Shown here in pieces: positions 29,422 through 45,654 of a stretch of DNA of 64,000 nt; position 1 is the first letter of the stretch; every line of letters starts with the position of its first letter. Under the pieces are notes generated by a model, which was given only the letters and a program-made list of their open reading frames with translations, did not search any database and was not told where the DNA came from. The DNA comes from a virus, in the IMG/VR virus record IMGVR_UViG_3300025120_009955, positions 1 to 64,000 of that record. One strand, 5' to 3'. The position numbers and the translations under genes are program-made.

Positions 29422-30236
29422 TGAAAATATTATTAATTCTATTATATGCCTTGATACTGGCAGGTTGTGCAACTGGTCAGGCAATGAAAGGTACTTATGA
29501 TCAACCGGTAACAGTGGGTGCACCAACTGTTAAAGAGTTTGATACTATACCACCACCGGCACTAGGTAAGGTAGTGGTTGCTGTTTATAACTTTACAGAT
29601 AAGACAGGACAAAGACGTCCAAGTGACACACAGTCAAGTTTTAGTACAGCAGTAACACAAGGTGCTGATGCGTTTTTAATTAAAGCATTAAAAGACGTAG
29701 GCAACAGTGGGTGGTTTGAAGTAGTAGAACGTGGAGGACTTGCTAGTCTTACACAGGAAAGACAGATTATTAGACAGATGCGTGAAGCCTACGATGGGCC
29801 AGACGCTAAGAAACTTATGCCGATGAAGTTTGCTGGTATGTTGATTGAAGGTGGTATTACAGGATATGACACTTCAACAAGAAGTGGTGGTATGGGTATG
29901 CGAGTATTAGGCATAGGGCCACAAACACAATTTAGTGAAGATATTATCACTGTGTCGTTGAGAGCAGTAAGCGTTAACACTGGTTCAGTATTAGCGGCTG
30001 TGAATGTACAGAAAACAGTATATTCTACAGCAGACAGTATAGCAGTATTAAAGTTCTTTGACAATGACACACAGGTTTTTGAATTTGAGTCGGGCATTAC
30101 ATTAAACGAACCGGCAACATTAGCAGTGAAAACTACAGTAGAGGCGGCTGTAGTTGAGCTAATAAAAGAGGGCGAACTCAAAGACGTTTGGGATTTCGCA
30201 TATGAGCCTATTAATGGCAAGGAAACAAAAGAATGA
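29421..30236 (+). CDS. csgG: Curli secretion pore lipoprotein CsgG
   Basis: LAGC lipobox, VAVYNFTDKTGQRRP, FSTAVTQG, WFEVVER.GL..L..ERQIIR. Confidence 0.92.
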   Translation: MKILLILLYALILAGCATGQAMKGTYDQPVTVGAPTVKEFDTIPPPALGKVVVAVYNFTDKTGQRRPSDTQSSFSTAVTQGADAFLIKALKDVGNSGWFEVVERGGLASLTQERQIIRQMREAYDGPDAKKLMPMKFAGMLIEGGITGYDTSTRSGGMGMRVLGIGPQTQFSEDIITVSLRAVSVNTGSVLAAVNVQKTVYSTADSIAVLKFFDNDTQVFEFESGITLNEPATLAVKTTVEAAVVELIKEGELKDVWDFAYEPINGKETKE

Positions 30237-31006
30237 AAAAATTAGTAAAAATATTTGGGGTGTTATTACTAACAATGTCAGTAGCATTTGCCGCTGATAA
30301 TAGTATCTATATTAATCAGGCTGGTAGTTCTAGTACTATTAATCTAAAACAAGACGGTAGTGCCAACAAAATATACGGTAAAGGTGATTCAGAAGGAACC
30401 GCGGCATTATTTACTGGTAGTAGTCAAACAGTTGACATACGTCAAGTTGGTGCCAGTAACTTGTTAGGAATTGATGTTAACAGTACGGTGGTCAGTGGTG
30501 TAGGTGTTAATTTAACATACTACATTACAGGTTCAAACTCTGTAGCAAGTATTGACATCAACGGTGATGGCTTAGGTACAGCCGCGAATAACGTATTTAA
30601 TGTACAAATGACAGGTAACTACAATGATTTAGTAGCTGACATATTAGGTACAGGTAATAGTTTAACAGCAACAGCAGTAGGAGGTAATTACAATGACTTC
30701 AACTTTACCATTGATGCTGACGACACAACTACAGGTATAGCAATCAGTGGTGGTGGTAGTAACGTTACAACATTGGTGTTAGGTACTGATGACTCAACAG
30801 TTAATTATACAGCAGTTGGTGCATCAAACACACTCAGTCTGACACAAAGTGGAGTAGGTGACGGTACTAACGGACATAACTTTGATTTAGATATTAACGG
30901 CTCATCAAACGCATTTACTGCTACACAAGCAGATACACAGTTTAATGATATTGATGTGAACATTACTGGTAACAGTAATACTTGGACAATTAATCAAACA
31001 AACTAA
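30233..31006 (+). CDS. Secreted curlin-like beta-repeat protein
   Basis: Signal peptide, DNSIYINQAG, ~23-aa repeats of the form x-Q/I-x-G-x-x-N. Confidence 0.72.
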   Translation: MKKLVKIFGVLLLTMSVAFAADNSIYINQAGSSSTINLKQDGSANKIYGKGDSEGTAALFTGSSQTVDIRQVGASNLLGIDVNSTVVSGVGVNLTYYITGSNSVASIDINGDGLGTAANNVFNVQMTGNYNDLVADILGTGNSLTATAVGGNYNDFNFTIDADDTTTGIAISGGGSNVTTLVLGTDDSTVNYTAVGASNTLSLTQSGVGDGTNGHNFDLDINGSSNAFTATQADTQFNDIDVNITGNSNTWTINQTN

Positions 31007-31007
31007 T

Positions 31008-31163
31008 ATGCAAACTCAAAAACAACATCTGGTGATAATGATGCAGGACCTAAATGCTCTTAGGCAAGAAGTAGCATTGTCACCAAACGGTGTAAACTCT
31101 ATTTTAAAAGAAATAGATGAACGTGGTTGCGAGTTATTATATCAGTATCTAGCAACTCCATGA
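31008..31163 (+). CDS. Small unannotated ORF (51 aa)
   Basis: MQTQKQHLVIMMQDLNALRQE...; ATGA overlap with the FecR gene. Confidence 0.5.
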   Translation: MQTQKQHLVIMMQDLNALRQEVALSPNGVNSILKEIDERGCELLYQYLATP

Positions 31164-32272
31164 TCAAGTTACTCGTAGTTTTACTCATGGCTATTCCCCA
31201 AATAGCTATGGGTGCTATTGGTACTATCTCACAACAAGAACAAGATCCAGCAAGAATTACTCGTAAAGATATAACTCTCAAAGGTGTTAAAGGTGTGGGT
31301 GTAGAAATGAAAGATAGTCTACGCACAGGAGCCGGCACACTTGAAATTACATTTGAAGATGACACACAGGTACAGATGACAGAGTCAGCTAAGTTAACCA
31401 TTGATGACTTTATATACGACCCCAACAACAAGGACGCAGGCAAACTAGCAATTAAGATAGGCCGAGGCACAGCCCGTTATGCGTCAGGCCAGATAGCAAA
31501 GGATCGTCCACAAGCAGTTAAAATTAGAACACCAAGTGCAACAGTAGCAGTTAGAGGTACTGACTTTACGGCTACAGTAGATGAAATAGGTGCTACCACA
31601 GTTATTCTATTACCTAGTTGTCCTCAAGGTTGGATAGATATTCAACAAGATTGTAAGACTGGTGCTATTGAAGTTATAAGTTTAGGTGGAAGTGTTTATA
31701 TGGATAAACCATTTGAAGCAACTCGTGTACCTAATCTAGAATCAAAACCAAGTCCGCCAGTTATAGTTGATCTGACTGAAGAAATGATCCGTGCGATTAT
31801 TATAGTGGGTACACCACGAGAAGTTAAAGAAGAAGAACGTAAACAACTTGCAAAGAATGCCTTAGACCAAAATGCCTTGGACCAAGAACAATTAGAAAAC
31901 GAATTAGATAAACAAGCACAAGAACTAGAGCAATACAATGCCAGCTCAAGACTAAGTCGTAATCTATTAGACAGAGATTTTTTAGCCAACATATTAGACA
32001 TACTTAATTTGCAATTAATGAATGCACAGGCTCGTGTGTTAAGCAGTACACAAAAAAATTCAATACTACCAGACTATATTCCAGACCAAGGTGTAGAAGC
32101 TTATGTGGATAGTATGCACGTGGAACTATGTATAGACACCATTGGTAGTGACATTGCCTGTGTTAAAACACCAACCACACAAGAAAGTACTATACGTCAG
32201 ATACAGGGCACTGTAGATATAACTAACAGAGTTAATAGTGAAGGTACAACTGTTATTACTACGAGACAATAA
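31160..32272 (+). CDS. Secreted FecR-domain protein
   Basis: Signal peptide; D.LRTG...ITFEDDT.V...A.L.ID.F.YDP, TPSATVAVRGTDF. Confidence 0.85.
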   Translation: MIKLLVVLLMAIPQIAMGAIGTISQQEQDPARITRKDITLKGVKGVGVEMKDSLRTGAGTLEITFEDDTQVQMTESAKLTIDDFIYDPNNKDAGKLAIKIGRGTARYASGQIAKDRPQAVKIRTPSATVAVRGTDFTATVDEIGATTVILLPSCPQGWIDIQQDCKTGAIEVISLGGSVYMDKPFEATRVPNLESKPSPPVIVDLTEEMIRAIIIVGTPREVKEEERKQLAKNALDQNALDQEQLENELDKQAQELEQYNASSRLSRNLLDRDFLANILDILNLQLMNAQARVLSSTQKNSILPDYIPDQGVEAYVDSMHVELCIDTIGSDIACVKTPTTQESTIRQIQGTVDITNRVNSEGTTVITTRQ

Positions 32273-33786
32273 TGAGAGCCAGCATACTATTATTTTTGTT
32301 GTTAATTTTCCAGCATTTATTCGCAACAAAAGCACAAGCCTTAGATATCCTAATCTATCACAGCAACTATGTCTATACTGATTCAAAGACAGGACTTGAA
32401 GCAAAAGGTTATACAGTATCGGGTTCAACATCAACCACAGTTGCTTCAGCATCTACTCTGGCAAACTATGATATAGTATTTGATCAACTATACAACAACA
32501 ACTGTGGATCTACTTGTCGTGCTAACTATGACACCTATGTCAAGGACGGTGGCACTCTAGTTATTGTAGGAGAGAACTCAAATTTTTCTAGTAGAAACAA
32601 TACTGTTATAAGTCTCATTGAGAACAAGTTTGGTGGCACATTGGATCTAGGTTCAAATGTTTCTGGTGGTGCTACTTACTCTACAGCAGATAACACAGTC
32701 AATACATCAATCAGTGGCACTGACGATGGCGGACAATACATCTATGGTTCCAGTATAGCAAATACATCTGACGGCGTCTGGGTAGCAAAGACTGGTGGTG
32801 GTGCTGTCATTTGGATGATGTGGCGTGGCAGTAGTTTACCAAGTGGCTATACAGGTTCTGTTATAGTTACGTTTGACATCAATCAGTTCGACGATATGTA
32901 TGACACCTCTGAGACTTGGGAATTCGTTGATGATGTGATCTACTATGGTATCAACGGTGAAATGGAATCAAGTGGCACAACAACTACTACAACAACAGGA
33001 ACAAGCTCAGGTATATCAGGCGGACAGAGTACACAAGTTACTACTGATCGTGCAAGAGCGGCAACTATTAAAAGTACTTCTGGTGCTAGTGATAACTCAG
33101 TTTATATAGAACAAGCTGGTGACAGTAATACTGTGGAGATTCTACAAGATGGTTCATCAGGTAATCATATAAGAGGTATTGGACAAAATATGGCTGATAT
33201 AACAGGTGATTCAAATGATCTTGAAATAAAGCAAGGTGCTGGTACATCAGGTGATGGAGTTAATTTAATTGAATTAATGATTGATGGTGACACTAATGAC
33301 CTAAAACTATATCAAGATAGATATGATGATGGAACAGCAGATGCAGATCCGACTGGTGACCATATTATTAAACTCAATGTCGATGGTAATTTAAATGACA
33401 TTGAAGTAATTCAACGATCAAATGGCACAGATGGTCATTATGCAGATATAGATGTGACTGGCAATTCTAGTAATTTTGATATTCTACAAAAAGGTCAACA
33501 CGAAAAACAATTGTTTATAGATGTAACAGGCAATAGCAATATAATAGATGTTGAACAAAGAGATAGCACATCTAAATTTGCGGATATAAAATTAATTGGA
33601 AATGGTCATGATGTGACTGTACTACAAAAAGGAACAGGTGCTCATAACGCAACAATTGATTTAACTTTTGGTTCTGGAGCAAGCACTGTAGATTTAACAC
33701 AACAAGGTACTTCAAATCAATCATATTCGCTAGAACAAATTTGTTACAATGTATCCGGGTGTTCAACTACAGTAACACAAGAATAA
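32272..33786 (+). CDS. Secreted protein with N-terminal globular domain, T/S linker and C-terminal curlin-like repeats
   Basis: Signal peptide; DNSVYIEQAGDSN, I.Q.G..N repeats, terminal C...GC..TVTQ. Confidence 0.72.
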   Translation: MRASILLFLLLIFQHLFATKAQALDILIYHSNYVYTDSKTGLEAKGYTVSGSTSTTVASASTLANYDIVFDQLYNNNCGSTCRANYDTYVKDGGTLVIVGENSNFSSRNNTVISLIENKFGGTLDLGSNVSGGATYSTADNTVNTSISGTDDGGQYIYGSSIANTSDGVWVAKTGGGAVIWMMWRGSSLPSGYTGSVIVTFDINQFDDMYDTSETWEFVDDVIYYGINGEMESSGTTTTTTTGTSSGISGGQSTQVTTDRARAATIKSTSGASDNSVYIEQAGDSNTVEILQDGSSGNHIRGIGQNMADITGDSNDLEIKQGAGTSGDGVNLIELMIDGDTNDLKLYQDRYDDGTADADPTGDHIIKLNVDGNLNDIEVIQRSNGTDGHYADIDVTGNSSNFDILQKGQHEKQLFIDVTGNSNIIDVEQRDSTSKFADIKLIGNGHDVTVLQKGTGAHNATIDLTFGSGASTVDLTQQGTSNQSYSLEQICYNVSGCSTTVTQE

Positions 33787-33811
33787 TTCTACCAAAAAAG
33801 CATAATTTGTC

Positions 33812-33885
33812 TTGACTCTATTAATAAAATCCCATATAATTAATATTACAATTTTGTAACACTCTTGTTACATCTTGTATAAATA
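33812..33885 (+). promoter_or_regulatory. Tandem sigma70 promoter, palindromic operator and late promoter of xoxF
   Basis: TTGACT-N17-TATAAT (33812-33840); TGTAACA-N4-TGTTACA (33855-33872); TATAAATA (33878-33885). Confidence 0.7.
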
Positions 33886-33988
33886 AAAGTGTAGCAGTTC
33901 TAACTGTTATATTTAGAGTGGACGCGGTTTCCAATATTCATGAAACAACCGGCACGTTTAATCAACTTTTCTCTAAAGGAAAAAATCA

Positions 33989-35863
33989 ATGCAATTAAAT
34001 AAAATTAAACTAGCTCTTGGTTTTATCACTGTAGCGACCCTAGCTTCATCAGGTGCGTTTGCGGCGGCAGATCAAGAGAAAGCAATGGCAAATGCTAACA
34101 ACTGGGCACACCCTAGAGGTCAGCACGATAACCAGGCTTATTCTAAGTTGACTCAAATCAACAAAGGTAATATTAAAAATCTTAAAGCGGCTTGGACATT
34201 AAGTACAGGCGTAAATAGAGGACACGAAGGTGCCCCTCTAGTTATTGGTAATATGCTATATGTACATACAGCATTTCCAAATAACGTATATGCTTTAGAT
34301 TTAAACAACAACCAAAAAGTTGTATGGTCTTACTTCCCTAAACAAGATCCTAGCGTTCAAGCAGTTCTATGTTGCGATAACGTTAACCGTGGTCTTGGTT
34401 TTGGTAACGGTAAAATCTTCTTACAACAAAACGATGGTATGTTAGTAGCATTAGATGCAAAAACAGGTGCTAAAGTTTGGGACGTAAGTAATACAGATCC
34501 TAAAGTTGGTGCTACAAATACTAACGCTCCTCACGTAATTAAAGACAAAGTTCTTACTGGTTGTTCTGGTGCAGAATTTGGTGTTCGTTGCTTTATAGCG
34601 GCATATAACATTGAAGACGGTTCTTTAGCTTGGAAAGCTATGAGTACAGGTCCTGACGAAGAAGTATTAATTGGTAAAGATTTCAACAAAGAAAATCCAC
34701 TTTATTCAGCTCTATCAGTTTACGAAGATGTAAACGGTGGTAACGTTGAAGGCGGTTCTTTCAAAAGAATTCCAACTGATCAACTTGAAGCTCCAGTAGC
34801 AGACCTAGGTCTTAAGACTTGGTTGAAACCACAAGCTGTTAAAGATGGTTGGCAACACGGTGGTGGTTCTGTATGGGGTTGGTGGCCATATGATGCTAAG
34901 ACTAACTTAGTATACTACGGTACAGGTAATCCTTCAGTATGGAATCCAGATGTACGTCCAGGTGACAACAAATGGTCTATGACAGTGTTCGCACGTGATC
35001 TAGATACAGGTATGGCACGTTGGGGTATGCAAATGACACCACACGATGAATGGGATTATGACGGTATTAACGAAGTTATCCTATTTGACAAAGGTGGAAA
35101 AACATACGCTTGGCACCATGACAGAAACGGTTTTGCATACACTTGGGTAGCTAGTAACGGTACTTTAGTTTCAGCTGAAAAAGTGCATCCATTCGTTAAC
35201 TGGTCAACTGGTATTGATCTTAAAACTGGTGTGCCACAAAAAGAAGCGGCACATTCAACACACCAAGATTACAACACTAAAGGCACTTGTCCTGCGGCAC
35301 TTGGTACTAAAGACCAACAGCCTGCGGCATATTCACCTAAGACAGGTTTAATATACTCACCACTTAACCACGTATGTATGACATACGAACCAGTTGAGTC
35401 TAAGTATGTTGCTGGTCAACCTTGGGTTGGTGCTACTTTAACTATGTTTGCTGGTCCTGATGGCGTAATGGGTGGCTTTGCCGCTTATGATCCAATGACT
35501 AACAAAAAAGTATGGTACAACAAAGAGAAATTCTCAGCTTGGGGCGGTGCATTAACAACAGCTTCAGACTTAGTTTTCTATGGTACTTTAGATCGTTGGT
35601 TTAAAGCGTTAGATGCAAAATCAGGTAAAGAACTTTGGAAATTCCAAGTTGGTTCTGGCGTGATTGGTAATGCGTTTACGTACTCACACAAAGGCAAACA
35701 GCACGTTGGCGTACTATCAGGTATTGGTGGTTGGGCTGGTGTTGCTATGAACCTTGGTCTAACAAATGACACAGATGCACTTGGTGCGGCTGGTGGTTAT
35801 AAAGAGTTAACAAAGTATAATGCGGCTCCAGGTGGCGGTGCATTAACAGTGTTCTCACTATAA
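33989..35863 (+). CDS. xoxF: Lanthanide-dependent PQQ methanol dehydrogenase XoxF (Methylophilaceae-like)
   Basis: Signal peptide, RGHEGAP, vicinal CCD, GAEFGVR, NPDVRPGDNKW, DEWDYDG (second Asp is the lanthanide ligand), GIGGW. Confidence 0.95.
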   Translation: MQLNKIKLALGFITVATLASSGAFAAADQEKAMANANNWAHPRGQHDNQAYSKLTQINKGNIKNLKAAWTLSTGVNRGHEGAPLVIGNMLYVHTAFPNNVYALDLNNNQKVVWSYFPKQDPSVQAVLCCDNVNRGLGFGNGKIFLQQNDGMLVALDAKTGAKVWDVSNTDPKVGATNTNAPHVIKDKVLTGCSGAEFGVRCFIAAYNIEDGSLAWKAMSTGPDEEVLIGKDFNKENPLYSALSVYEDVNGGNVEGGSFKRIPTDQLEAPVADLGLKTWLKPQAVKDGWQHGGGSVWGWWPYDAKTNLVYYGTGNPSVWNPDVRPGDNKWSMTVFARDLDTGMARWGMQMTPHDEWDYDGINEVILFDKGGKTYAWHHDRNGFAYTWVASNGTLVSAEKVHPFVNWSTGIDLKTGVPQKEAAHSTHQDYNTKGTCPAALGTKDQQPAAYSPKTGLIYSPLNHVCMTYEPVESKYVAGQPWVGATLTMFAGPDGVMGGFAAYDPMTNKKVWYNKEKFSAWGGALTTASDLVFYGTLDRWFKALDAKSGKELWKFQVGSGVIGNAFTYSHKGKQHVGVLSGIGGWAGVAMNLGLTNDTDALGAAGGYKELTKYNAAPGGGALTVFSL

Positions 35864-35889
35864 TCTAGTTAGTTAGATTGTATTACTTT

Positions 35890-35917
35890 AAAAAGGCTCT
35901 TTCGGGGGCCTTTTTTT
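35890..35917 (+). terminator. Terminator after xoxF
   Basis: AAAAGGCTCT-TTCG-GGGGCCTTTTTTT. Confidence 0.85.
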
Positions 35918-35942
35918 ATCAATTAAACTATAAACAATAAAT

Positions 35943-38783
35943 ATGACTATGAGCTTAACTAAACCAGTTGATTACGGCACACCATTAAAAACCACAAAAC
36001 CCACTATTACCCTCGAAATTGACGGTGTTGAAACTACTGTGCCTGAAGGTACAAGTATTATGGCGGCCGCAAAAATTAACGATACTAGTATTCCAAAACT
36101 CTGCGCCACGGATAGTCTAGAACCATTTGGTAGCTGTAGACTTTGTTTGGTTGAAATAGAAGGTAGAAAGGGTTATCCTGCAAGCTGTACCACACCTGTA
36201 AGCGAGAATATGAAGGTACGCACCCAAACACCAAAACTAGAAGAACTAAGACGTGGAGTAATGGAATTATATATTTCCGATCACCCATTAGACTGCCTAA
36301 CCTGTGCAACGAATGGTGACTGTGAATTACAAGATATGGCAGGTGCTGTTGGCCTAAGAGATGTTCGTTACGGCTTCGATGGTGAAAATCATTTAGCCCA
36401 AGAGAAAGATAAAACAAATCCGTACTTTACATTTGACCCTAGCAAGTGTATTGTGTGTTCACGATGCGTTAGAGCGTGTGAAGAAGTACAAGGTACATTT
36501 GCCTTGACTATAGAAGGTAGAGGATTTGATTCAAAGGTATCAGCAGGTAATAAAGACTTTATGGATTCAGAATGTGTTAGCTGTGGAGCCTGTGTTCAGG
36601 CCTGTCCAACAGCAACACTGATAGAAAAAACAGTAGAAGAACACGGAGTACCTGATCGTAGTGAAACAACAACCTGTGCTTATTGTGGTGTTGGGTGTAG
36701 TTTCAACGCTGAAATGAAAGGTGATCAATTGATACGTATGGTGCCAAACAAAGACGGTGGTGCTAATCACGGACACAGTTGTGTCAAAGGACGTTTTGCC
36801 TGGGGATATGCTACACACAAAGATAGAATAACAACTCCAATGATACGTAAGTCTATCAACGATCCATGGAAAGAAGTAACCATGGAAGAAGCTATTGATT
36901 ATGCCGCTACAGAAATAAAAAGATTACAGAAAGAACACGGCCGTAATTCAGTAGGTGGTATAACATCAAGTCGTTGTACCAATGAAGAAACATATGTTGT
37001 ACAAAAATTAGTACGTGCGGCACTTGGAAATAATAATGTAGACACCTGTGCTAGAGTTTGCCATTCACCAACAGGATATGGATTAAAAAGCACCTTAGGT
37101 GAAAGCTCTGGAACACAAGACTTTGACAGTATCAGAGAAACAGATGTAGCAGTTATAATAGGTGCTAATCCTACAGACGGACATCCAGTGTTTGCTAGTC
37201 ATATGAAACGTAGACTACGTGATGGAATGAAATTAATAGTAATTGATCCACGTGAGATTGACATATTACATACCATACACGGCAATGGTGGGTTACACCT
37301 ACAGCTTAAACCAGGCACTAATGTAGCAATGATAACCAGCATAGCACACGTCATAGTAACAGAAGGGCTTTGTCAAGAACAATACATAAACGATCGTTGT
37401 GAATTAGACAGCTACGAAATGTGGAAAGAATTTGTTAGTAAAAAAGAAAACAGTCCAGAAGTATTAGGACTAGAAACAGGAGTTGATCCTGAATTAATAC
37501 GTGAAGCCGCGAGAATATATGCTGAACCTGGTAATTCAGCATTTTACTATGGACTAGGAGTAACAGAACATAGCCAAGGAACAACAATGGTTATGGGAAT
37601 AGCTAACTTGGCAATGGCTACTGGTAACCTAGGTAAAAATGGAGCAGGAGTAAATCCATTACGTGGACAGAACAATGTCCAAGGTGCTTGTGATATGGGT
37701 AGTTTCCCACACGAGTTTCCAGGTTATAGGCACGTCAGCGAACAATCAACTAGAGATCTTTTTGGTAACCATTGGGGAGTTGAATTAGATCACGAGCCAG
37801 GCCTACGTATTCCTAATATGTTAGACTTTGCTATAGGTGGAAAGTTTAAAGGAATCTATATCGAAGGTGAAGACATAGCACAAAGTGATCCAAATACTAA
37901 ACACGTGACACGGGCCTTAGAAGAAATGGAATGTGTCATAGTACAGGATTTATTCTTAAATGAAACAGCTATGTATGCACACGTATTTTTACCTGGATCA
38001 AGTTTCTTAGAGAAGTCAGGTACCTTTACTAATGCCGAAAGAAGAATAAGTCCAGTAAGAAGAGTAATGGCTCCTAAGAATGGATATGAAGATTGGGAAA
38101 TAACACAGATGCTATCTAATGCACTTGGTTACAAAATGAACTATGCAAGTGCTTCAGAAATACTTGATGAAATAGCAGAACTAACTCCAACCTTTAAAGG
38201 AGTAAGTTGGGCTAAATTAAGAGAACTAGGCAGTATACAATGGCCTTGCAATGATGAGCATCCTACAGGCACTCCTATTATGCACGTCAATGAGTTTGTG
38301 CGAGGTAAAGGAAAATTTTGGATTACAGAATACATTCCAACTGATGAGAAAGTTAATCAACGCTTTCCGTTAATACTAACAACTGGGCGTATACTAAGTC
38401 ATTACAATGTAGGTGCTCAGACTAGAAGAACTAAAAACTCAGAATGGCATCAAGAAGATCTATTAGAAATACATCCAACAGATGCAGAAGCACGTGGAAT
38501 CAATGATGGTGATCCAGTTAACATTAAGAGTCGTGCAGGGCATACATCTTTAACCTGTCGTGTTACGGAACGTGTACAGCCAGGCGTAGTATATACAACA
38601 TTCCATCATCCGTGGAGTGGAGCAAATGTTATCACAACTGATAACTCAGACTGGGCTACTAACTGTCCAGAGTTTAAAGTAACAGCAGTAGAAATTAGTC
38701 TAGCAGTAGAAAACAGTGAGTGGCAGAAACAGTATGAAAAATTCAGTGACACACAAAAAACTTTAGCAGAAGTACGTGACTAA
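35943..38783 (+). CDS. fdsA: Formate dehydrogenase alpha subunit (FdsA/FdhF type, molybdopterin, multiple Fe-S)
   Basis: GSCRLCLVE, HPLDCLTC, two 4Fe-4S ferredoxin motifs, CAYCGVGC, active site TCARVCHSP, LRGQNNVQG. Confidence 0.93.
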   Translation: MTMSLTKPVDYGTPLKTTKPTITLEIDGVETTVPEGTSIMAAAKINDTSIPKLCATDSLEPFGSCRLCLVEIEGRKGYPASCTTPVSENMKVRTQTPKLEELRRGVMELYISDHPLDCLTCATNGDCELQDMAGAVGLRDVRYGFDGENHLAQEKDKTNPYFTFDPSKCIVCSRCVRACEEVQGTFALTIEGRGFDSKVSAGNKDFMDSECVSCGACVQACPTATLIEKTVEEHGVPDRSETTTCAYCGVGCSFNAEMKGDQLIRMVPNKDGGANHGHSCVKGRFAWGYATHKDRITTPMIRKSINDPWKEVTMEEAIDYAATEIKRLQKEHGRNSVGGITSSRCTNEETYVVQKLVRAALGNNNVDTCARVCHSPTGYGLKSTLGESSGTQDFDSIRETDVAVIIGANPTDGHPVFASHMKRRLRDGMKLIVIDPREIDILHTIHGNGGLHLQLKPGTNVAMITSIAHVIVTEGLCQEQYINDRCELDSYEMWKEFVSKKENSPEVLGLETGVDPELIREAARIYAEPGNSAFYYGLGVTEHSQGTTMVMGIANLAMATGNLGKNGAGVNPLRGQNNVQGACDMGSFPHEFPGYRHVSEQSTRDLFGNHWGVELDHEPGLRIPNMLDFAIGGKFKGIYIEGEDIAQSDPNTKHVTRALEEMECVIVQDLFLNETAMYAHVFLPGSSFLEKSGTFTNAERRISPVRRVMAPKNGYEDWEITQMLSNALGYKMNYASASEILDEIAELTPTFKGVSWAKLRELGSIQWPCNDEHPTGTPIMHVNEFVRGKGKFWITEYIPTDEKVNQRFPLILTTGRILSHYNVGAQTRRTKNSEWHQEDLLEIHPTDAEARGINDGDPVNIKSRAGHTSLTCRVTERVQPGVVYTTFHHPWSGANVITTDNSDWATNCPEFKVTAVEISLAVENSEWQKQYEKFSDTQKTLAEVRD

Positions 38784-38873
38784 AGATTACAGTTAGATTA
38801 CAAAAATGCAATTAGTGCTTGCTTTTTCTTATAATCCTAGTAAAATATAGTTTTAAATAATTAAATACAATTG

Positions 38874-39146
38874 ATGGAAACATTCAAATACTATTTCAAC
38901 AAAACTATTATCACACTTTGCATTCTCTTCTTTTTCGTATTATGGTATCAAATACTTTCTAAAATCTTGTGTAGTGTGTTTTGTGAAGTTGAGACTGCAG
39001 AAGTTGTTATAGCATATGAGGATATGACTCCTGAACAACGTCGAGCAGAATTTGAAAAACTAAAAGCACAAAGGACAGCAGAAAATGAAGAAAATAGTAG
39101 TACTCCTGACACTACTGACAGTGTCAACATTAGCTCTAGCAGATAA
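38874..39146 (+). CDS. Small membrane protein
   Basis: N-terminal TM helix and charged C-terminus. Confidence 0.5.
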   Translation: METFKYYFNKTIITLCILFFFVLWYQILSKILCSVFCEVETAEVVIAYEDMTPEQRRAEFEKLKAQRTAENEENSSTPDTTDSVNISSSR

Positions 39147-39651
39147 GAAAGGATATTTTTACGGAGTTAAATTTGACCATAAAAATAGCATAGGCGGTAC
39201 TGATGCTAACACCTTTGGTGTAGAGTTTGGCAAACACGTATATGATTGGTTAGATGTAAAAGTAGCAACTAACTACACCGACAAAGAAGGTAGAAGCAAA
39301 GGCAATAGCTACCGTCTTGAAGCAGGCCCAAAATTCAAACATAAACTAAATCAAGATTGGTCAACTAGTTTGTTCCTAGCAACAGGACAAAAGTTTGTCA
39401 AAGATGATGACTATGGATATTGGGTAGTAACACCAGGAGTCAAATATAAAATTAATCAAGACTGGAGTGTAGGCACTAGTGTTAGATTCCGTAACAGTTA
39501 CGATACTAGTCACAATCAAAGTGATAGGACTTACGCTGTTAAACTAGGATATAAAATTACACCAGATGTCTCAGTAAGTACTCGCTATAGAATGAAACGA
39601 GGTGACAGTGAATATAACGCTATTGGCGTTGGTTTCAAGTTCGAATTTTAA
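39085..39651 (+). CDS. Small outer-membrane beta-barrel/porin
   Basis: Signal peptide, alternating aromatic strands, C-terminal GVGFKFEF. Confidence 0.8.
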   Translation: MKKIVVLLTLLTVSTLALADKKGYFYGVKFDHKNSIGGTDANTFGVEFGKHVYDWLDVKVATNYTDKEGRSKGNSYRLEAGPKFKHKLNQDWSTSLFLATGQKFVKDDDYGYWVVTPGVKYKINQDWSVGTSVRFRNSYDTSHNQSDRTYAVKLGYKITPDVSVSTRYRMKRGDSEYNAIGVGFKFEF

Positions 39652-39696
39652 TAATATTGTATAATGGTAGTCATTGAGTACTAAATATTAATGTAC

Positions 39697-39743
39697 TCGT
39701 TCATCCCATCAGGGACGGAAGTAGGCATAAGCTGAAGGAACGC
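39697..39743 (+). ncRNA. Glutamine riboswitch (glnA RNA motif)
   Basis: CGTTC-ATCCC-ATCA-GGGAC-GGAAGTA-GGC-ATAA-GCT-GAA-GGAACG; three-way junction with AGUA/GAA E-loop upstream of an AGGAGA RBS. Confidence 0.85.
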
Positions 39744-39765
39744 TTCTTTTTAAAAGGAGATAGCT

Positions 39766-39957
39766 ATGTATACTGAAGAATATACATCCACCATATTAGA
39801 AATTGCAACACTATTAGATCTCGAAGTTAAAGAAGTAACTAACTTCCTTGAGCTAATGCTAGATGGTTACGGTTTTACTGATGCTCTTCACGGAACGCAT
39901 TTAACCAGAGATGACTGTGAACTAGTGTTAGCAGAACTTAAGAAAAGAAAAAAATAA
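39766..39957 (+). CDS. Small acidic protein downstream of the riboswitch
   Basis: Strong RBS, 63 aa. Confidence 0.65.
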   Translation: MYTEEYTSTILEIATLLDLEVKEVTNFLELMLDGYGFTDALHGTHLTRDDCELVLAELKKRKK

Positions 39958-39958
39958 T

Positions 39959-40318
39959 ATGATAGACATCTTATTCTTGTTAATGGTCAAACACTGTATC
40001 TGTGATTTAGGATTACAGAGTCAACTGCTATGGGGCAAGACCATTAACAAGCAATATTACTTTGGCTGTCATAGTCATTATTTACATCACGCTGTTGGTA
40101 CGTTCCTAGTTATACTGTTATTTTTTAATCCTTTATTGGCATTAAAAATAGCTGTCATTGACTACATAGCACATTGGCATATTGATTATACAAAACATCG
40201 GGTGCAACTCTATTGGAATCTTGGACGAAAGGACAAGGCGTTTTGGTGGGTAACAGTAGTCGATCAATTATTACATTTCTTAACATACTATATCTTTGTT
40301 GTTTACCTAGTTAATTAA
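39959..40318 (+). CDS. DUF3307-like membrane protein
   Basis: KHCICD..LQ, HWHIDY.K, DQLLH. Confidence 0.75.
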   Translation: MIDILFLLMVKHCICDLGLQSQLLWGKTINKQYYFGCHSHYLHHAVGTFLVILLFFNPLLALKIAVIDYIAHWHIDYTKHRVQLYWNLGRKDKAFWWVTVVDQLLHFLTYYIFVVYLVN

Positions 40319-40365
40319 TATTAACGTAGCACATAAGTTATCTACGCATATTTTTAAATACTAAT

Positions 40366-40731
40366 ATGAAAGTAAACGAATTTTTTAAACACAATTTTGT
40401 TCTGATTCCAGTTATAGCATCAGTCATTTTTGGTACTGTAACAGGTATCAAGTATGTTATTGATCTTACAAACACTATTGATGCCAACAACCAACGTGTT
40501 GAAAAACTATTAGGTGACCTAGAAGGCATCGACGACAAATATCGAGACAAGATTGACACTCTTAAAGACGATTTGAATGAAGCTGAAAACTTGAACTCAC
40601 AAGAAATAGCTGAACTAAAAGCAGAAGTTGCTAAACTAGATTCAGCATTACGTATGGGTGAAGATCTTTATCGAGTGTTAGCAGATCAGGTTAGAGAACA
40701 ATCATATGATATTAAAGACCTTAATCGCTAG
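40366..40731 (+). CDS. TM plus coiled-coil protein (i-spanin-like architecture)
   Basis: N-terminal TM helix followed by a long heptad region. Confidence 0.5.
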   Translation: MKVNEFFKHNFVLIPVIASVIFGTVTGIKYVIDLTNTIDANNQRVEKLLGDLEGIDDKYRDKIDTLKDDLNEAENLNSQEIAELKAEVAKLDSALRMGEDLYRVLADQVREQSYDIKDLNR

Positions 40732-41407
40732 TATAATCCTACTTACTATAAGTCAATCAGTACTTGCTCGTAACGACTACCTAAACGGACAATCCTGGCA
40801 ACAGTGTAATAAAGGAACTATTTCAACCTACGGTAGTTACAATCAACAAGACAACACTAACTACAATGGGCAAAATTATCCTGGTAGGTTGAGTGATAAC
40901 TCCAGTAACTTTGGTGGCAGTCAAGGGGACAGTCAACAAATTGGCATAAACTTTACCTGGTTTTTAGGTAGTAACTGTACAGACGAAGTACAAGACTTTA
41001 TGTTTGACTCAATGAAGATCAACAGACAACTTGAACTAGCTAAAATGTGTCAACGCTACAAGCATAAAGAACTACCAGATAACTTTGCTGAACTTAGATC
41101 AGTGTGTGCAGGCTTTCCAGATGATATTGAGAATGAGCATAGACCACCAGAAGGTAGTGGTAGTTACTATGATGAACTCTTGCAAGAAATTAAAGACGGC
41201 AAACATCCTGACAAGAATCCTAAAAAATATCATTCAGACGATGTTAAGGTACCTTTCCAAGATAGTTTAAAACTAAAGTATGATGGTAAGGATACTAAAA
41301 CACATAAATTAAAAGTTCCTAAGGGAATGGATAAACCTCGTCTGACAGACGAGTATGGTCTTCCATTGCCCTACACAATACCTGAACCTAAAGTAGTGTT
41401 CGAATAA
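40706..41407 (+). CDS. Secreted hypothetical protein
   Basis: Signal peptide, four Cys, overlaps the upstream gene. Confidence 0.55.
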   Translation: MILKTLIASIILLTISQSVLARNDYLNGQSWQQCNKGTISTYGSYNQQDNTNYNGQNYPGRLSDNSSNFGGSQGDSQQIGINFTWFLGSNCTDEVQDFMFDSMKINRQLELAKMCQRYKHKELPDNFAELRSVCAGFPDDIENEHRPPEGSGSYYDELLQEIKDGKHPDKNPKKYHSDDVKVPFQDSLKLKYDGKDTKTHKLKVPKGMDKPRLTDEYGLPLPYTIPEPKVVFE

Positions 41408-41466
41408 GTTCTAGTAAAATCTCATTTTTGATAGTATAATATAATTAATTTATATAGGAGTTATCT

Positions 41467-41712
41467 ATGAAAGTATTACGATTTACAGCAGTCTGGTGTG
41501 AACCGTGCAAGATGTTAGCAAAGAATTTAGACAATGTTACAACACAAGTGCCTATCCAGGTACTCGATATTGACAAAGAAGAAGATTTAGCTAGACACTT
41601 TAATGTGCGTTCAGTACCAACATTAGTTATGATTAATGAGGACAAGAAAGAAGTAAAACGTGTAGTTGGAGTGCAATCAGTAAAACAACTTAACCAGTTT
41701 ATCAATGAATAG
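41467..41712 (+). CDS. trxA: Thioredoxin
   Basis: WCEPC and VRSVPTL. Confidence 0.9.
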   Translation: MKVLRFTAVWCEPCKMLAKNLDNVTTQVPIQVLDIDKEEDLARHFNVRSVPTLVMINEDKKEVKRVVGVQSVKQLNQFINE

Positions 41713-41886
41713 AAACTAATGGTTTTCAGTATGCTTTTTATATAAAAGTATCATATAATTAACATAAGTAATAACAGTAACACGTTGTTACTCAAAGAAG
41801 CGAATCATCAAATTGGACCTGTGGTAACACTCTCCAATGATTTGGCTAGCCGACATATTATTAATTTTTTAAAAAGGAATACTATT

Positions 41887-41958
41887 ATGTGGACTACACC
41901 TCAAGCAACTGAAATGCGTTTCGGTTTTGAAGTAACTATGTACGTAATGAACAAGTAA
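41887..41958 (+). CDS. pqqA: PQQ precursor peptide PqqA (absent from the ORF track)
   Basis: MWTTPQATEMRFGFEVTMYVMNK with the E-x-x-x-Y core; AAGGA RBS; own terminator. Confidence 0.95.
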   Translation: MWTTPQATEMRFGFEVTMYVMNK

Positions 41959-41981
41959 TACCTGTTTATACAATACAGATT

Positions 41982-42011
41982 AAAAAAGCACTCTTCGGAG
42001 TGCTTTTTTTT
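41982..42011 (+). terminator. Terminator after pqqA
   Basis: AAAAAAGCACTC-TTCG-GAGTGCTTTTTTTT. Confidence 0.9.
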
Positions 42012-42069
42012 GACTTATTATTCAGACTATGTTATAATAACAATTAACTCTTAACAGATAAATACTAGT

Positions 42070-42789
42070 ATGAGATACTTGTTTGCTGTAGCGTTATTAG
42101 TACTTTCATTCGTGGCTTCATCTGCACCGAATCCAGACTTATGGCCGTATGTGCAAGAAAGATTATTCAATGACCGTATAGCAGTAGAAGCAGATCCTCT
42201 AGAGCTATCTATAGATGGACCAAAAAGAGCGGCAAGTGGTGCTCAAGTTCCTATTACTATCAAAGTAAATTCAAAAAAATTCAAAAAACTATATCTTATA
42301 ATAGATGCTAATCCTACACAGCACGCCGCCACATTTACGTTAACTGAAAGCACTCAAACAACTGAGATAATGACACGTATTAGGATGGAAACAGATAGTT
42401 TTGTCCGTGTAATCGCTGAAGATGAAAATGGGCATTTATCAATGAGTGCAAAAGCTATTAGAGCATCAGGTGGTTGTAGTGGATATATGGATTCAAGCGA
42501 TCCTGAATTAACCAAAGCCTTAGGTAAAATCCTTTACAAAGCTAAAAACGGGTACCAGACGACTAGAATTAAACATCCTATGTTTACTGGACTACAAAAA
42601 GATTCAATTAACGGATGGTATGTACCAGAATGGATTATTAACCGTGTAGAATGGTATGACGGTGCTTTACTAGTAATGTCAGTAGACACTAATATTTCAA
42701 TGTCACAAGATCCATATTTTAAATTTAAATATTCAAGTCCTGTTACAATCATAGCAACAGATACTAAAGACAATAAATGGTCTAAGTAG
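42070..42789 (+). CDS. Quinoprotein-dehydrogenase-associated SoxYZ-like carrier
   Basis: Signal peptide, P.RA..GAQVP, IIDANP, TRIRM, ASGGCS, IKHPMFTGLQ, SMSQDP. Confidence 0.85.
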   Translation: MRYLFAVALLVLSFVASSAPNPDLWPYVQERLFNDRIAVEADPLELSIDGPKRAASGAQVPITIKVNSKKFKKLYLIIDANPTQHAATFTLTESTQTTEIMTRIRMETDSFVRVIAEDENGHLSMSAKAIRASGGCSGYMDSSDPELTKALGKILYKAKNGYQTTRIKHPMFTGLQKDSINGWYVPEWIINRVEWYDGALLVMSVDTNISMSQDPYFKFKYSSPVTIIATDTKDNKWSK

Positions 42790-42861
42790 TATTCTTTTCT
42801 TGCATTTTATCCAAAAAGAATGTATAATATTGTATTATTAACGTTAACTCGGAGAAGCCAC

Positions 42862-43122
42862 GTGGAAAATGAATTAGAAACAGTAATTACTAGTGAAAGT
42901 TTAGATGTCGAACAAGCATCACAGAACATAGGCGGAAGTCGATTTGATCTAATATTAATTGCGTCACATCGGGCACGTGATATAGCAAATACACGTAAAA
43001 TTGCAGAGAGAGGTAACCCTGATAAGAAATGGTCTTGTAGACCTACTACAGAAGCATTGCACGAAATTGAAACAGGAAGTATTGGTAGAGAACTTTTAGA
43101 CCAAATAGCAAAGGAAAAATAG
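42862..43122 (+). CDS. rpoZ: RNA polymerase omega subunit-like protein
   Basis: SRFDLILIASHRARDI...PTTEALHEI..G; GTG start after GGAG. Confidence 0.8.
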   Translation: MENELETVITSESLDVEQASQNIGGSRFDLILIASHRARDIANTRKIAERGNPDKKWSCRPTTEALHEIETGSIGRELLDQIAKEK

Positions 43123-43125
43123 TTT

Positions 43126-43371: not shown

Positions 43372-43376
43372 GTTAT

Positions 43377-43451
43377 GCACCCATCGTCTATCGGTTAGGA
43401 CACCGGGTTTTCATCCCGGCAAGGGGAGTTCGATTCTCCCTGGGTGTACCA
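43377..43451 (+). tRNA. tRNA-Glu(TTC)
   Basis: Cloverleaf, anticodon arm CCGGG-TTTTCAT-CCCGG, TTCGATT T-loop, encoded CCA. Confidence 0.95.
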
Positions 43452-43456
43452 ATTTT

Positions 43457-43532
43457 GCCCTCTTAGCTCAGTTGGTAGAGCAACGCACTTGTAATGCGTA
43501 GGTCGTCAGTTCGAATCCGACAGAGGGCACCA
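43457..43532 (+). tRNA. tRNA-Thr(TGT)
   Basis: ACGCA-CTTGTAA-TGCGT, TTCGAAT T-loop, encoded CCA. Confidence 0.95.
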
Positions 43533-43538
43533 AGATAA

Positions 43539-43628
43539 GGAAGTGTGGCTGAGTGGCTTAAAGCTCTGGTTTACTAAACCAGTGATCGGGAAACTGGTCC
43601 GTGGGTTCGAATCCTACCACTTCCGCCA
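43539..43628 (+). tRNA. tRNA-Ser(ACT), class II with long variable arm
   Basis: GGAAGTG/CACTTCC acceptor, G73, CTGGT-TTACTAA-ACCAG, variable arm, CCA. Confidence 0.88.
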
Positions 43629-43641: not shown

Positions 43642-45654
43642 ATGATTAAAAAGATATTATTAAGTCCGTGGACAGCAGTTGTTACGCTGTCCATAATTGT
43701 TTATATAGCACTAAGTAGTCCTATATTTTTAGAATCGGTTAAGTTAAGATACTTCGACCAACTAATTACCTCACAGCCTGAACAACAAACAACAATAGCA
43801 ACGGTTAACATAGATGAAGCAAGTCTAGACAAGTATGGGCAGTGGCCATTCAGTCGTGATGTATATGGTGACATAATCAAAGACCTATATGATCGTGGTG
43901 CCGGTTTAGTAGTATGGAACATATTAATGTCTGAAGAAGACCGATTGGGTATGGATCATAAGCTACAAGAAGTATTACGAGAACACCCTGTTGTTTTACC
44001 GTTAGTGGGTGCAGAAGAAACTAAAAATTCACCACGCAATCCTGGTGCAGTTATGATAGGTGATCCTACAAACAAAGTAGTAGAGTATCCAGGTATACTA
44101 TCAAGTATTGATCATCACGAAAGTCTGGCATATGGTAGTGGTATAAGTTCAGTATTTCCAGAAGTAGATGGTGTAACTCGTAGGATGCCGTTAGTAATTA
44201 AAAGTGGAGATACACTGTACCCAAGTTTAGGTTTAGAAGTCCTACGCATATTAGCAGGTGATCCAAGTTTCCAAATTAAATTTTCAGACATAGGCATTGA
44301 CAAACTACGTGTACCACAGTTTGGTATTGTTTCAACAGATCCTGTAGGGCGTATATGGATTGATCATCAACAGCGTCCTCAGAGTTATAGTCTAACAGAA
44401 TTACCAGAAACATTTGATAGTGGTATAGTTATAGTAGGAACATCAGCCGCGGGCATTGCAAATCCGATAGCAACTAGTCGTGGTGAAGTATGGCCGCAAG
44501 ACTTACAAGCGAGTGTGATAGCAACATTAGCAAGTGGTATCAATATTCAACGTCCAGACTGGGCAAGAGGTGCTGAATTATTAACACTAATTACCTTAAG
44601 TATTTTACTGCTACTACTGTCTAGATGGATATATGTAGGGCTAGGTGTAAGCATTGTTGTACTAGGTAGCCTAGTGCCAGTTACAGAATACGTATACGCA
44701 GAATATTTAATGTTGTTTGATGCTACTCTAGTACTAGGTGGCGGAATACTTGTGTTATTGCACGCATATGGTATTAAGTTTGTAAGTGAATACCTGCAGA
44801 AACAACAGATCAAGAAACAGTTTGGAACATACCTATCACCGGCTATGGTTGAGAAACTACAGAAAAATCCAGAGCTATTGAAGTTAGGTGGAGAAACAAG
44901 ACAGTTAAGCATAATGTTTACAGATGTACGTGGATTTACAACTATATCAGAACACTATGGCGATGATGTACAAGGACTTACTAGTATCATGAATCGTTAT
45001 ATGACTGCTATGACTGAGAAGATTATTGAAAACGGTGGCACAATAGACAAATATATTGGAGATGCCCAGATGGCTTTCTGGAATGCTCCTATAGACGACC
45101 CCGATCACGCAGAGAACGCTGTAAGAACAGCATTAAAGATGATAGGGAGTTTGAATGAGTTTAATGAAGAAATTAAAAAAGAAGGTATACCACCTTTTGC
45201 AATGGGATTGGGGATTAATTCCGGTTCTTGTGTCGTTGGGAATTTTGGTAGTGTTCAACGTTTCGATTATACTTGCCTCGGGGATACTGTCAACTTGGCC
45301 GCAAGGTTAGAAGGACAGAGTAAAAACTACGGAGTTGATATTATATTAGGTCAAGGCACTGTGGAATATATAAAACACAAGATTGATGTAGGATTAATTG
45401 AACTAGATAATATCGCAGTTAAAGGAAAAACACAAGGAGTTAAAATATATACAATTGGTAATGTTGAAGTGAGTAAACATCAAGAATTCCTTGACAACTA
45501 CTACGCAGGCAATTGGGAAGATGCTCTTTACATAGCTAGAAGATTTGCAAACGATGACAATGTTATCTCTGGCTATTATCAAAAAATGGTCGAAAGACTT
45601 ATACAAGGGTGCCCAGACGATTGGGACGGAACATTTCGAGCAAAAACTAAATAA
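43642..45654 (+). CDS. CHASE2-domain class III adenylate/guanylate cyclase
   Basis: IDEASL..YGQWPFSR, DGVTRR.PL, three TMs, FTDVRGFT, DKYIGDA.MAFWNAP, GDTVNLAARLE. Confidence 0.93.
   Translation: MIKKILLSPWTAVVTLSIIVYIALSSPIFLESVKLRYFDQLITSQPEQQTTIATVNIDEASLDKYGQWPFSRDVYGDIIKDLYDRGAGLVVWNILMSEEDRLGMDHKLQEVLREHPVVLPLVGAEETKNSPRNPGAVMIGDPTNKVVEYPGILSSIDHHESLAYGSGISSVFPEVDGVTRRMPLVIKSGDTLYPSLGLEVLRILAGDPSFQIKFSDIGIDKLRVPQFGIVSTDPVGRIWIDHQQRPQSYSLTELPETFDSGIVIVGTSAAGIANPIATSRGEVWPQDLQASVIATLASGINIQRPDWARGAELLTLITLSILLLLLSRWIYVGLGVSIVVLGSLVPVTEYVYAEYLMLFDATLVLGGGILVLLHAYGIKFVSEYLQKQQIKKQFGTYLSPAMVEKLQKNPELLKLGGETRQLSIMFTDVRGFTTISEHYGDDVQGLTSIMNRYMTAMTEKIIENGGTIDKYIGDAQMAFWNAPIDDPDHAENAVRTALKMIGSLNEFNEEIKKEGIPPFAMGLGINSGSCVVGNFGSVQRFDYTCLGDTVNLAARLEGQSKNYGVDIILGQGTVEYIKHKIDVGLIELDNIAVKGKTQGVKIYTIGNVEVSKHQEFLDNYYAGNWEDALYIARRFANDDNVISGYYQKMVERLIQGCPDDWDGTFRAKTK

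Follow-up and report, generated by a model that had tools for sequence, protein, structure and literature searches.

A window of 64,000 nt, the first part of the linear IMG/VR virus record IMGVR_UViG_3300025120_009955 (72,356 nt; hereafter G000), holds an island of auxiliary genes that includes xoxF, encoding a lanthanide-type methanol dehydrogenase, and fdsA, encoding the catalytic subunit of a formate dehydrogenase. We consider it likely that this is a real island of about 9.8 kb in the genome of a large T4-like marine phage, related to the cultured phage Melnitz and infecting Methylophilaceae of the OM43 type, and that its products enter C1 enzymes composed partly of phage and partly of host components. 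Hybrid assembly, the timing of expression and a benefit to the phage are what we infer from the observations set out below. The five genes named in the original prediction (xoxF, fdsA, pqqA, a SoxYZ-like carrier and a beta-barrel read as a porin) are all present, intact and on the + strand. The island had been placed at 33812-42789; position 33812 is a promoter-like site and not a gene start, and the island continues to 43628.

The island lies on one molecule with viral genes on both sides. The left flank (28963..33786, +) is a curli-like module of CsgF, CsgG, a curlin-repeat protein, a FecR-domain protein and a second curlin-repeat protein (Pfam CsgF, CsgG, FecR and Curlin_rpt), in the gene order of Melnitz positions 50731-54809. 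The right flank (43642..45654, +) encodes a protein with CHASE2 and adenylate/guanylate cyclase domains (Pfam), a homologue of Melnitz gene 104 (54849-56873; 38% identity over 680 aa). Melnitz is a Methylophilales phage, a cultured OM43 myophage (MZ577097; Buchholz et al. 2022, PMC9004378), in which the genes for CsgF, CsgG, curlin, FecR, curlin and the cyclase follow one another directly; in G000 this series is split by the cassette, a 9.8-kb insertion between the end of the curlin gene at 33786 and the start of the cyclase gene at 43642. As with the curli module and the cyclase, the neighbourhood of the two genes that follow the cyclase is common to Melnitz and G000. A greedy call of open reading frames (ORFs) of at least 50 aa gave 92 in the window and 104 in the whole record, mostly on the + strand, at a GC content of about 36%. 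Products of 19 of the 104 match Melnitz, and 59 of the 104 match G001, a 104-kb IMG/VR viral contig colinear with G000. The T4-type late promoter TATAAATA is not enriched in number in the window (9 against 10.1 expected), but all nine sites lie 13-117 nt upstream of an ORF start on the same strand, a placement for which 8% of positions qualify. By shared gene content and order, and by late promoters placed before genes, the phage is T4-like, Kyanoviridae-related and Melnitz-like. The viral context that had been predicted is thus borne out by synteny with Melnitz and G001, by the IMG/VR record and by two phage flanks. Besides the curli-like module and the cyclase, G000 and Melnitz have in common a transfer-messenger RNA (tmRNA), a glutamine riboswitch, Hsp20 and T4-type late promoters; Melnitz differs in having no island between curlin and cyclase, and neither xoxF nor fdsA.

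The fdsA gene (35943..38783, +) stands as an orphan and encodes, in 946 aa, the catalytic alpha subunit of an NAD-linked molybdenum formate dehydrogenase. The protein passes TIGR01591 (884.8 bits against a cut-off of 666), its residues 9-932 align with chain A of 6TG9, and it matches the Pfam families Fer2_4, NADH-G_4Fe-4S_3, Fer4, Molybdop_Fe4S4, Molybdopterin and Molydop_binding. Cys373, His374 and Arg574 align with C386, H387 and R587 of 6TG9_A, which we take to be the active-site Cys-His pair and arginine. All 27 columns that are cysteine in at least 95% of 97 cellular FdsA sequences are cysteine here too, and the protein departs from the usual residue at only 5 of 384 near-invariant columns. 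Against the FdsA fragment of contig G011 (locus L019), dN/dS is 0.096. The intact 946-aa FdsA-type enzyme that had been predicted is therefore present, with the family cut-off passed and every conserved cysteine column retained. Compared with FdsGBACD of Rhodobacter capsulatus (6TG9/6TGA), the phage protein resembles the alpha subunit from end to end, including the cluster cysteines and the Cys-His and Arg residues; the difference is that the phage has alpha only, the gamma, beta and delta subunits not being found in the record. The FdhD maturase was identified in the host locus only, no family search for it having been made on the phage record.

The partner subunits are found in candidate hosts. 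The families of FdsB, FdsG and FdsD (PF01512, PF01257 and PF11390) gave no match in G000, G001 or a further phage record, G010, and gave matches in hosts. An fdsB gene lies within 400 nt upstream of fdsA in 57 of the 58 cellular metagenome loci with room for it and in none of four viral contexts. FdsA is hence a member of its family, but the phage locus is not an fds operon. In one candidate host (G005), the genome with the nearest XoxF, xoxF is followed by xoxJ and xoxG, and moaA, fdsG, fdsB, fdsA, fdhD and fdsD follow about 10 kb further on. A match of the cytochrome cL-like (xoxG) type was absent from the fragments G000, G001 and G010, and pqqE, which was searched in G000 and G001 only, was not found there; candidate hosts have pqqE and three copies of pqqA each. 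The proposal that the virus carries only catalytic or consumed parts accordingly holds for pqqE, the xoxG-type cytochrome, fdsB, fdsG and fdsD, which were not found in the 72-kb record and which hosts have. It does not extend to xoxJ and fdhD/fdsC, which were identified in the host locus and for which the phage record was not searched by family.

Among the best 120 FdsA homologues compared, one of which is the window's own protein, 63 clusters are 90-96% identical to it (942-946 aa) and 56 are 76-77% identical; FdsA of candidate hosts is 75-77% identical. We built a tree of 123 rows: the protein of the window, those of three viral, four host and 80 metagenome loci, and an evenly spaced sample of the clusters (21 of the 63 and 14 of the 56). 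In it, L019 and the sampled clusters of 90-96% identity join the window's protein in a clade with a support of 100, which sits on a stem of 0.34 changes per site and adjoins the Methylophilaceae FdsA. The metagenome scan for FdsA returned only relatives of at most 77% identity, and none of the 90-96% clade. The FdsA of G010 lies at a different genomic site and elsewhere in the tree, with a different donor clade; a second phage lineage has acquired an FdsA independently. The window's own FdsA cluster (at least 90% identical) has members on many contigs, of up to 315,303 nt, and the identical protein occurs on a contig of 184,262 nt, the longest on record. CheckV rates the 72 kb of G000 as about 20% complete, and the contigs with members of its FdsA cluster reach 315 kb; these figures suggest a phage much larger than Melnitz, with a genome well above 200 kb, that is, a jumbo phage.

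We asked whether the phage subunit could fit a host partner. In a complex model of host FdsB with residues 1-300 of phage FdsA, the score was 0.80, a mark reached by 58 of 80 solved complexes and by 2 of 110 mismatched pairs, against 0.00 for the best of three controls; across runs, contact agreement was at least 92% and the pLDDT of the partner at least 79. A subunit acting alone or with some other phage partner, either passing electrons to another acceptor or removing toxic formate or formaldehyde products, would agree with the long stem of the clade (0.34), with the distance to host FdsA (76-77%), with the lack of partner genes in the phage records searched, and with the thioredoxin and small uncharacterised genes nearby. 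We regard such a solitary role as unlikely: the N-terminal NuoG-like Fe-S domain that wires the subunit to FdsB is fully kept, with all its cysteine columns, and the interface predicted with host FdsB is confident relative to the controls. A hybrid formate dehydrogenase, with phage FdsA docked on host subunits, is the reading that we retain.

The xoxF gene (33989..35863, +) encodes a PQQ methanol dehydrogenase of 624 aa. It passes TIGR03075 (607.9 bits against a cut-off of 480) and matches PF01011 at 150 bits; its best solved relatives are the lanthanide XoxF structures 6OC5 and 6DAM. By eye, the translation has a hydrophobic N-terminal leader ending in AFAAA, a signal peptide, and vicinal cysteines are present at residues 128-129. 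The extra aspartate of the D-Y-D motif is a lanthanide ligand, and alanine stands there in MxaF. In the phage protein the motif WDYDG occupies residues 355-359, aligned with the DFD of 6OC5, and is found in 85 of the 85 rows of the XoxF tree. The protein is therefore, as had been claimed, an intact lanthanide-type XoxF, its dependence on lanthanide being predicted from the motif. A tblastn search of XoxF against the phage collection yielded nothing beyond two remote matches, glucose dehydrogenases at 24.8% identity.

The closest XoxF is that of a complete Methylophilaceae genome (95% in protein, 87.6% in DNA), followed by OM43-clade genomes at 90-93%. In the tree, phage copies fall into three clades, each beside a different cellular lineage: G000 groups with its 95% host, the phage contigs G002 and G004 with two LSUCC strains at 97%, and G001 and G003 with two other genomes at 98-99.6%. 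The phylogeny suggested as a check in the original prediction thus places the nearest relative in Methylophilaceae. Between phage copies, identity is no more than 85-88%. Upstream of xoxF, the sequences of G000, G001 and G002/G004 nevertheless align with each other and not with those of hosts, and have in common a GTAAC box, a late promoter and the leader CAACCGGCAC. In G001, the DNA identity of xoxF to a cellular copy is 98.3% between about codon 19 and the stop codon, and for G000 the identity to the host copy varies from 69% to 98% along 150-nt windows; overall, dN/dS against the host is 0.065 and dS is 0.61. Judged from these alignments, the pattern fits overwriting of the phage coding part by host alleles behind an upstream region that is phage-specific. 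A phage XoxF that tracks host lineages behind a shared promoter region is a new point.

The stand-alone pqqA that had been predicted is present and intact (41887..41958, +): its 23 codons encode a PQQ precursor peptide that passes TIGR02107 (38.1 bits against a cut-off of 20) and has the Glu-x3-Tyr pair (E-V-T-M-Y). Melnitz itself has an intact, unannotated pqqA of 24 codons (L015:26134-26208, about 76134-76208, +), where a hypothetical gene is annotated on the opposite strand; the main text of the Melnitz paper has 'pqq' only as a medium ingredient (PMC9004378). Directly after pqqA in the window lies a gene (42070..42789, +) for a quinoprotein-dehydrogenase-associated SoxYZ-like carrier with a signal peptide and a GGCSG cysteine. 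It passes TIGR04557 (197.5 bits against a cut-off of 140), in agreement with the predicted quinoprotein-associated SoxYZ fusion, and has Pfam SoxY and SoxZ domains, but fails the cut-offs of the true families (64.5 against 125 for SoxY, 44.5 against 76 for SoxZ). On eight further viral contigs with a SoxYZ-like gene, all eight products pass TIGR04557 and not true SoxY or SoxZ. None of these eight has pqqA near the gene, so the pairing of pqqA with the SoxYZ-like gene is not general. In hosts, the genes around the SoxYZ-like gene offered no clue; in two hosts, G005 (L205:4950-7499) and G008 (L116), two tandem pqqA genes lie about 1.5 kb from it and are divergently transcribed.

Fused phage soxYZ genes with the ggCs motif, carried on myovirus contigs and including a Methylophilales-like clade, have been published as thiosulfate-oxidation auxiliary genes by Kieft et al. 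2021 (PMC8190135), and the fusion itself is accordingly not new. The present gene shares the fused SoxY-SoxZ architecture and the cysteine motif with them; it differs in belonging to TIGR04557, in having pqqA and xoxF as neighbours, and in that candidate hosts lack SoxA and SoxB. That the gene serves thiosulfate oxidation, unrelated to the C1 genes beside it, would be in line with that report and with its GGCSG motif and Pfam SoxY and SoxZ domains. We find this quite unlikely: the carrier passes TIGR04557 and misses both true-family cut-offs, pqqA is directly adjacent in this phage and close by in two hosts, and the carrier is present in five of five candidate hosts, whereas SoxB and SoxA were each found in none of the five (controls gave matches). 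Because candidate hosts are without SoxA and SoxB, the gene is unlikely to serve thiosulfate oxidation, and from its family and context the carrier probably belongs to a PQQ/quinoprotein system.

Putative regulatory sites surround several of these genes. The control region of xoxF (33812..33885, +), which could be aligned with the sequence ahead of xoxF in three other phage contigs, has a sigma-70-like site TTGACT-17-TATAAT (33812-33840, +; 11 of 12 positions match), a palindrome GTAACA-N4-TGTTAC (33856-33871, +) and a late-type TATAAATA (33878-33885, +). After xoxF lies a terminator-like hairpin with a U-run (35890..35915, +; -12.7 kcal/mol, z -3.87, none of 200 shuffles as good). A second palindrome, GTAACA-N3-TGTTAC (41777..41791, +), precedes pqqA, which is followed by a 12-bp palindromic hairpin with A- and T-run flanks that is terminator-like in both directions (41982..42009, no strand assigned; -15.1 kcal/mol, z -4.40), and a second sigma-70-like TTGACT-17-TATAAT with a TG (42010..42038, +; 11 of 12 matches) stands before the SoxYZ-like gene. 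The suggestion that the genes are separately promoted is consequently upheld for xoxF and soxYZ, with terminators after xoxF and pqqA, and not for fdsA. Region-wide, neither sigma-70-like sites (23 against 32.9) nor terminator-like sites (6 against 5.3) are enriched, and the predicted fold of the xoxF leader RNA is unremarkable (z 0.22). The pattern GTAACA-N3/4-TGTTAC has two matches in the window against 0.01 expected, a number reached in none of 100 shuffles. It also occurs upstream of one host xoxF (L030:9817-9832), and imperfect copies, recognised by eye, precede xoxF in the other nine of ten cellular loci. This palindrome is a candidate operator shared by phage and host.

The slot between curlin and cyclase is occupied differently in related phages. 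In G001, xoxF and pqqA are also present, and a metallophosphatase, a PstS-like protein, a phosphate porin and AhpC stand in place of fdsA and soxYZ; in G003 (L012:1671-4815) the slot has xoxF, pqqA, AhpC and a B12/radical-SAM protein; in G010, curli and cyclase are present and the slot is without an island. Since its contents differ among G000, G001, G003 and G010, the slot is a variable auxiliary-gene site. The other genes in the slots of G001 (L007:8594-16902) and G003 are host-like; between them they encode a metallophosphatase, a porin, a phosphate-selective porin, a PstS-like binding protein, the peroxiredoxin AhpC and a B12/radical-SAM protein. In sequencing data, at least 80% of the cassette's sampled words were held by 14 DNA runs from 9 studies, dated 2017 to 2024. 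Variable occupancy, with PstS-like protein, porins, AhpC and a radical SAM protein in G001 and G003 and an empty slot in G010, is what would be expected if the island were recently captured cargo of no benefit to the phage. We judge this very unlikely in view of the divergence and purifying selection of xoxF relative to the nearest host copy (dS 0.61, dN/dS 0.065), the distinct FdsA clade with its 63 clusters, the same cassette in runs of nine studies over the years 2017 to 2024, and the phage-specific promoters and terminators around the genes.

DNA contigs from two independent studies covered all 30 bins of positions 30001-47000 at even depth. They bridged the junctions curlin to xoxF, xoxF to fdsA, fdsA to barrel, barrel to pqqA, soxYZ to tRNA and tRNA to cyclase, and the sole breaks in the bridging contigs were at the pqqA terminator and inside the tRNA cluster. 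The similarity to the nearest cellular xoxF does not extend past the ORF. Within 10 kb of xoxF in 80 cellular loci, no other cassette gene was present; the matches there were to FdsA at only 21-23% in three loci, to pqqA in two and, weakly, to the SoxYZ-like protein in one. An origin of the contig as a chimera of phage and host, or from a bacterial chromosome (a genomic island or prophage misfiled as viral), is extremely unlikely: the 95% identity of XoxF to a cellular protein, the absence of a structural phage gene from the record and the presence of chaperone, ribonucleotide reductase (RNR) and formate dehydrogenase genes, which are ordinary cellular genes too, speak for it, whereas phage genes in Melnitz order on both flanks, host homology that stops at the ends of the xoxF ORF with 87.6% DNA identity, the lack of other cassette genes within 10 kb of cellular xoxF, independent assemblies that span the junctions at even depth, an fdsA without the upstream fdsB of 57 of 58 cellular loci, and late-promoter motifs placed before genes speak against it. 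The chimera that the original prediction had named as grounds for refutation was not found: contigs span the junctions at even depth, and host homology is confined to one ORF.

Two RNA-library runs from two studies gave contigs of at least 95% identity on xoxF, fdsA, trx, soxYZ and csgG. In one study they had 0-1 differences for fdsA, trx, soxYZ and csgG; in another, fdsA had 2-6. The runs covered 21 of 30 (X15) and 14 of 30 (X17) bins, uncovered bins being no evidence of silence. One very deep bin at pqqA had loose ends leading into other contexts and is not assignable to this phage. An RNA contig joining 39564 to 41996 was disregarded, its short side being of 20 letters.

Several points weigh against the reading of a phage island that yields hybrid enzymes. 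No capsid, portal or terminase gene, the check that the original prediction had proposed for the contig, was found on the 72-kb G000, on G001 or on G010, all of them fragments. Likewise, no structural gene of the fragments G000, G001 or G010 matched Melnitz, and the gp23 capsid family PF07068 gave no match in five records, the positive control likewise giving none; the viral call rests on synteny, promoters and the IMG/VR class. Since the record is a fragment, the rest of the genome could contain fdsB/G, xoxG/J or pqqB-E. The RNA-library contigs may be carried-over DNA, so that expression is only hinted at, and for the pieces of xoxF and pqqA the source may be a host or another phage. The confident FdsB-FdsA model may stem from likeness to solved FdsABGD complexes. 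G011, the sole close FdsA relative with a readable context, is of uncertain nature: its FdsA N-terminus, 91% identical, follows an AdoHcy hydrolase gene, but it shares almost nothing with other phages, is 1% complete by CheckV and was not counted as a sure phage. Finally, the steps from formaldehyde to formate are not phage-borne; with no such step in the record, the description of the cassette as running from methanol to CO2 was overstated.

The remaining genes of the island are small. The barrel gene (39085..39651, +) encodes an outer-membrane beta-barrel of 188 aa with a signal peptide and a C-terminal Phe, which scores 28.3 bits on PF13505, just under the cut-off of 28.7. Its nearest Atlas clusters shown are all viral but one, a bacterial cluster at rank 23, and among five hosts one had a weak match, at 28% identity. 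Of the porin that had been predicted, the beta-barrel is real, but it is a small barrel of a phage-typical family and not a classical porin. Downstream lies a glutamine riboswitch aptamer (39696..39746, +; RF01739, 61.9 bits against a gathering score of 35), which lies within the island and precedes a 63-aa ORF and a DUF3307 gene, with the tmRNA 20 kb away; the glutamine riboswitch of Melnitz is reported at the tmRNA gene (PMC9004378). The four small genes that follow (39766..41407, +) begin with the 63-aa ORF and continue with a DUF3307 membrane protein (39959-40318, +), a protein with a transmembrane segment and coiled coil (40366-40731, +) and a secreted 233-aa protein (40706-41407, +) that resembles viral hypothetical clusters only. 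Next come an 81-aa thioredoxin (41467..41712, +; PF00085, 60.5 bits; phrog_22) and, beyond the SoxYZ-like gene, a protein like RNA polymerase omega (RpoZ/Rpb6; 42820..43122, +; PF01192, 27.4 against a cut-off of 26) with a FDLILIASHRAR stretch. At the right end of the island, a cluster of tRNA-Glu, tRNA-Thr and tRNA-Ser (43377..43628, +) was called by ARAGORN and by three Rfam tRNA matches; the tRNA-Ser (43539-43628, +) has, according to ARAGORN, the unusual anticodon ACT.

Outside the island, the window encodes a chaperone set of DnaK, Hsp20, GroES and GroEL (24746-27187 and 59885-61833), the DnaK sharing about 67% identity with bacterial DnaK in phage records, and a tmRNA (59387-59792, +; 127 bits with the betaproteobacterial model and 129 bits with the permuted model; permuted according to ARAGORN). 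Two large genes lie on the - strand (15521-17790), of which 15521-16672 has no Pfam match at E <= 0.001. Pfam searches on 10 further large ORFs gave no match for eight and sub-threshold matches for two, and PHROGs gave nothing useful for several other ORFs. A megablast search of the island against the phage collection, from which the window's own record was possibly excluded, gave no match.

Part of this gene content has been described before. The main text of Coutinho et al. 2020 (PMC7678222) presents two populations of T4-like Methylophilaceae viruses from Lake Baikal, VP_139 and VP_266, with about 35% GC and with methanol dehydrogenase and pqqA beside RNR and other auxiliary genes, and gives the identical interpretation that such genes boost host methylotrophy (PMC7678222). 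Phage xoxF with pqqA, and the reading attached to them, are thus not novel. The present phage differs in being marine or brackish and of OM43 type. The main text of the same paper, as distinct from its figures and supplements, has no mention of formate dehydrogenase, molybdopterin, SoxY or curli (PMC7678222), so that, within that scope, the orphan FdsA and the SoxYZ-like gene are additions. No report of an FdsA-type enzyme in a phage was found in the literature covered, which did not extend to supplements and figures (for example Fig. 5 and the tables of PMC7678222); a paper of 2026 labels a viral gene from anaerobic digesters 'fwdH, formate dehydrogenase' (PMC13394424). An orphan phage FdsA is apparently new. 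Three points deserve attention: an FdsA gene that stands alone, an XoxF that follows host lineages, and the proposed reassignment of soxYZ.

We propose that, of the two C1 steps from which the host gains energy, the island supplies the catalytic or consumed parts and no others. XoxF would be exported to the periplasm and depend on host PQQ, lanthanide supply, XoxJ and cytochrome, and PqqA would be consumed for PQQ synthesis by host PqqB-E. FdsA would be loaded with molybdenum cofactor by host FdhD and dock on host FdsB, FdsG and FdsD, from which electrons would pass to NAD+. The likely effect would be that oxidation of methanol and formate, and hence reducing power and ATP, is sustained or raised in the infected cell. 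Cyanophage psbA, which encodes the D1 protein of photosystem II, likewise supplies one core subunit that assembles with host subunits and cofactors, and phage copies of psbA exchange sequence with host alleles. The proposed likeness is that of a phage copy of one core subunit dependent on host partners; the difference is that the subunits here are a periplasmic quinoprotein and a cytoplasmic molybdoenzyme. For FdsA, unlike psbA, we know of no turnover argument. A bolder version, which we hold to be possible rather than probable, would have a long-lived viral FdsA lineage forming hybrid formate dehydrogenases as part of a C1-dissimilation kit with XoxF, PqqA and the SoxYZ-like carrier, with xoxF overwritten by host alleles while the phage promoter and a host-type GTAACA operator are kept, and with the published Methylophilales-like soxYZ genes belonging to PQQ/quinoprotein systems.

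Methylophilaceae of the OM43 type are abundant coastal consumers of methanol derived from phytoplankton. If infected cells run partly on phage enzymes, part of the flux of methanol carbon to CO2 would be under viral control, by a virus whose genes encode a lanthanide enzyme as well as the core of a molybdenum/iron-sulfur enzyme, both reliant on cofactors supplied by the host. The finding raises the question of whether soxYZ, widely counted as a viral sulfur-oxidation gene, is misassigned in phages of methylotrophs. It also makes testable whether phage and host build hybrid multisubunit redox enzymes and whether allele replacement allows phage genes to keep pace with those of their hosts.

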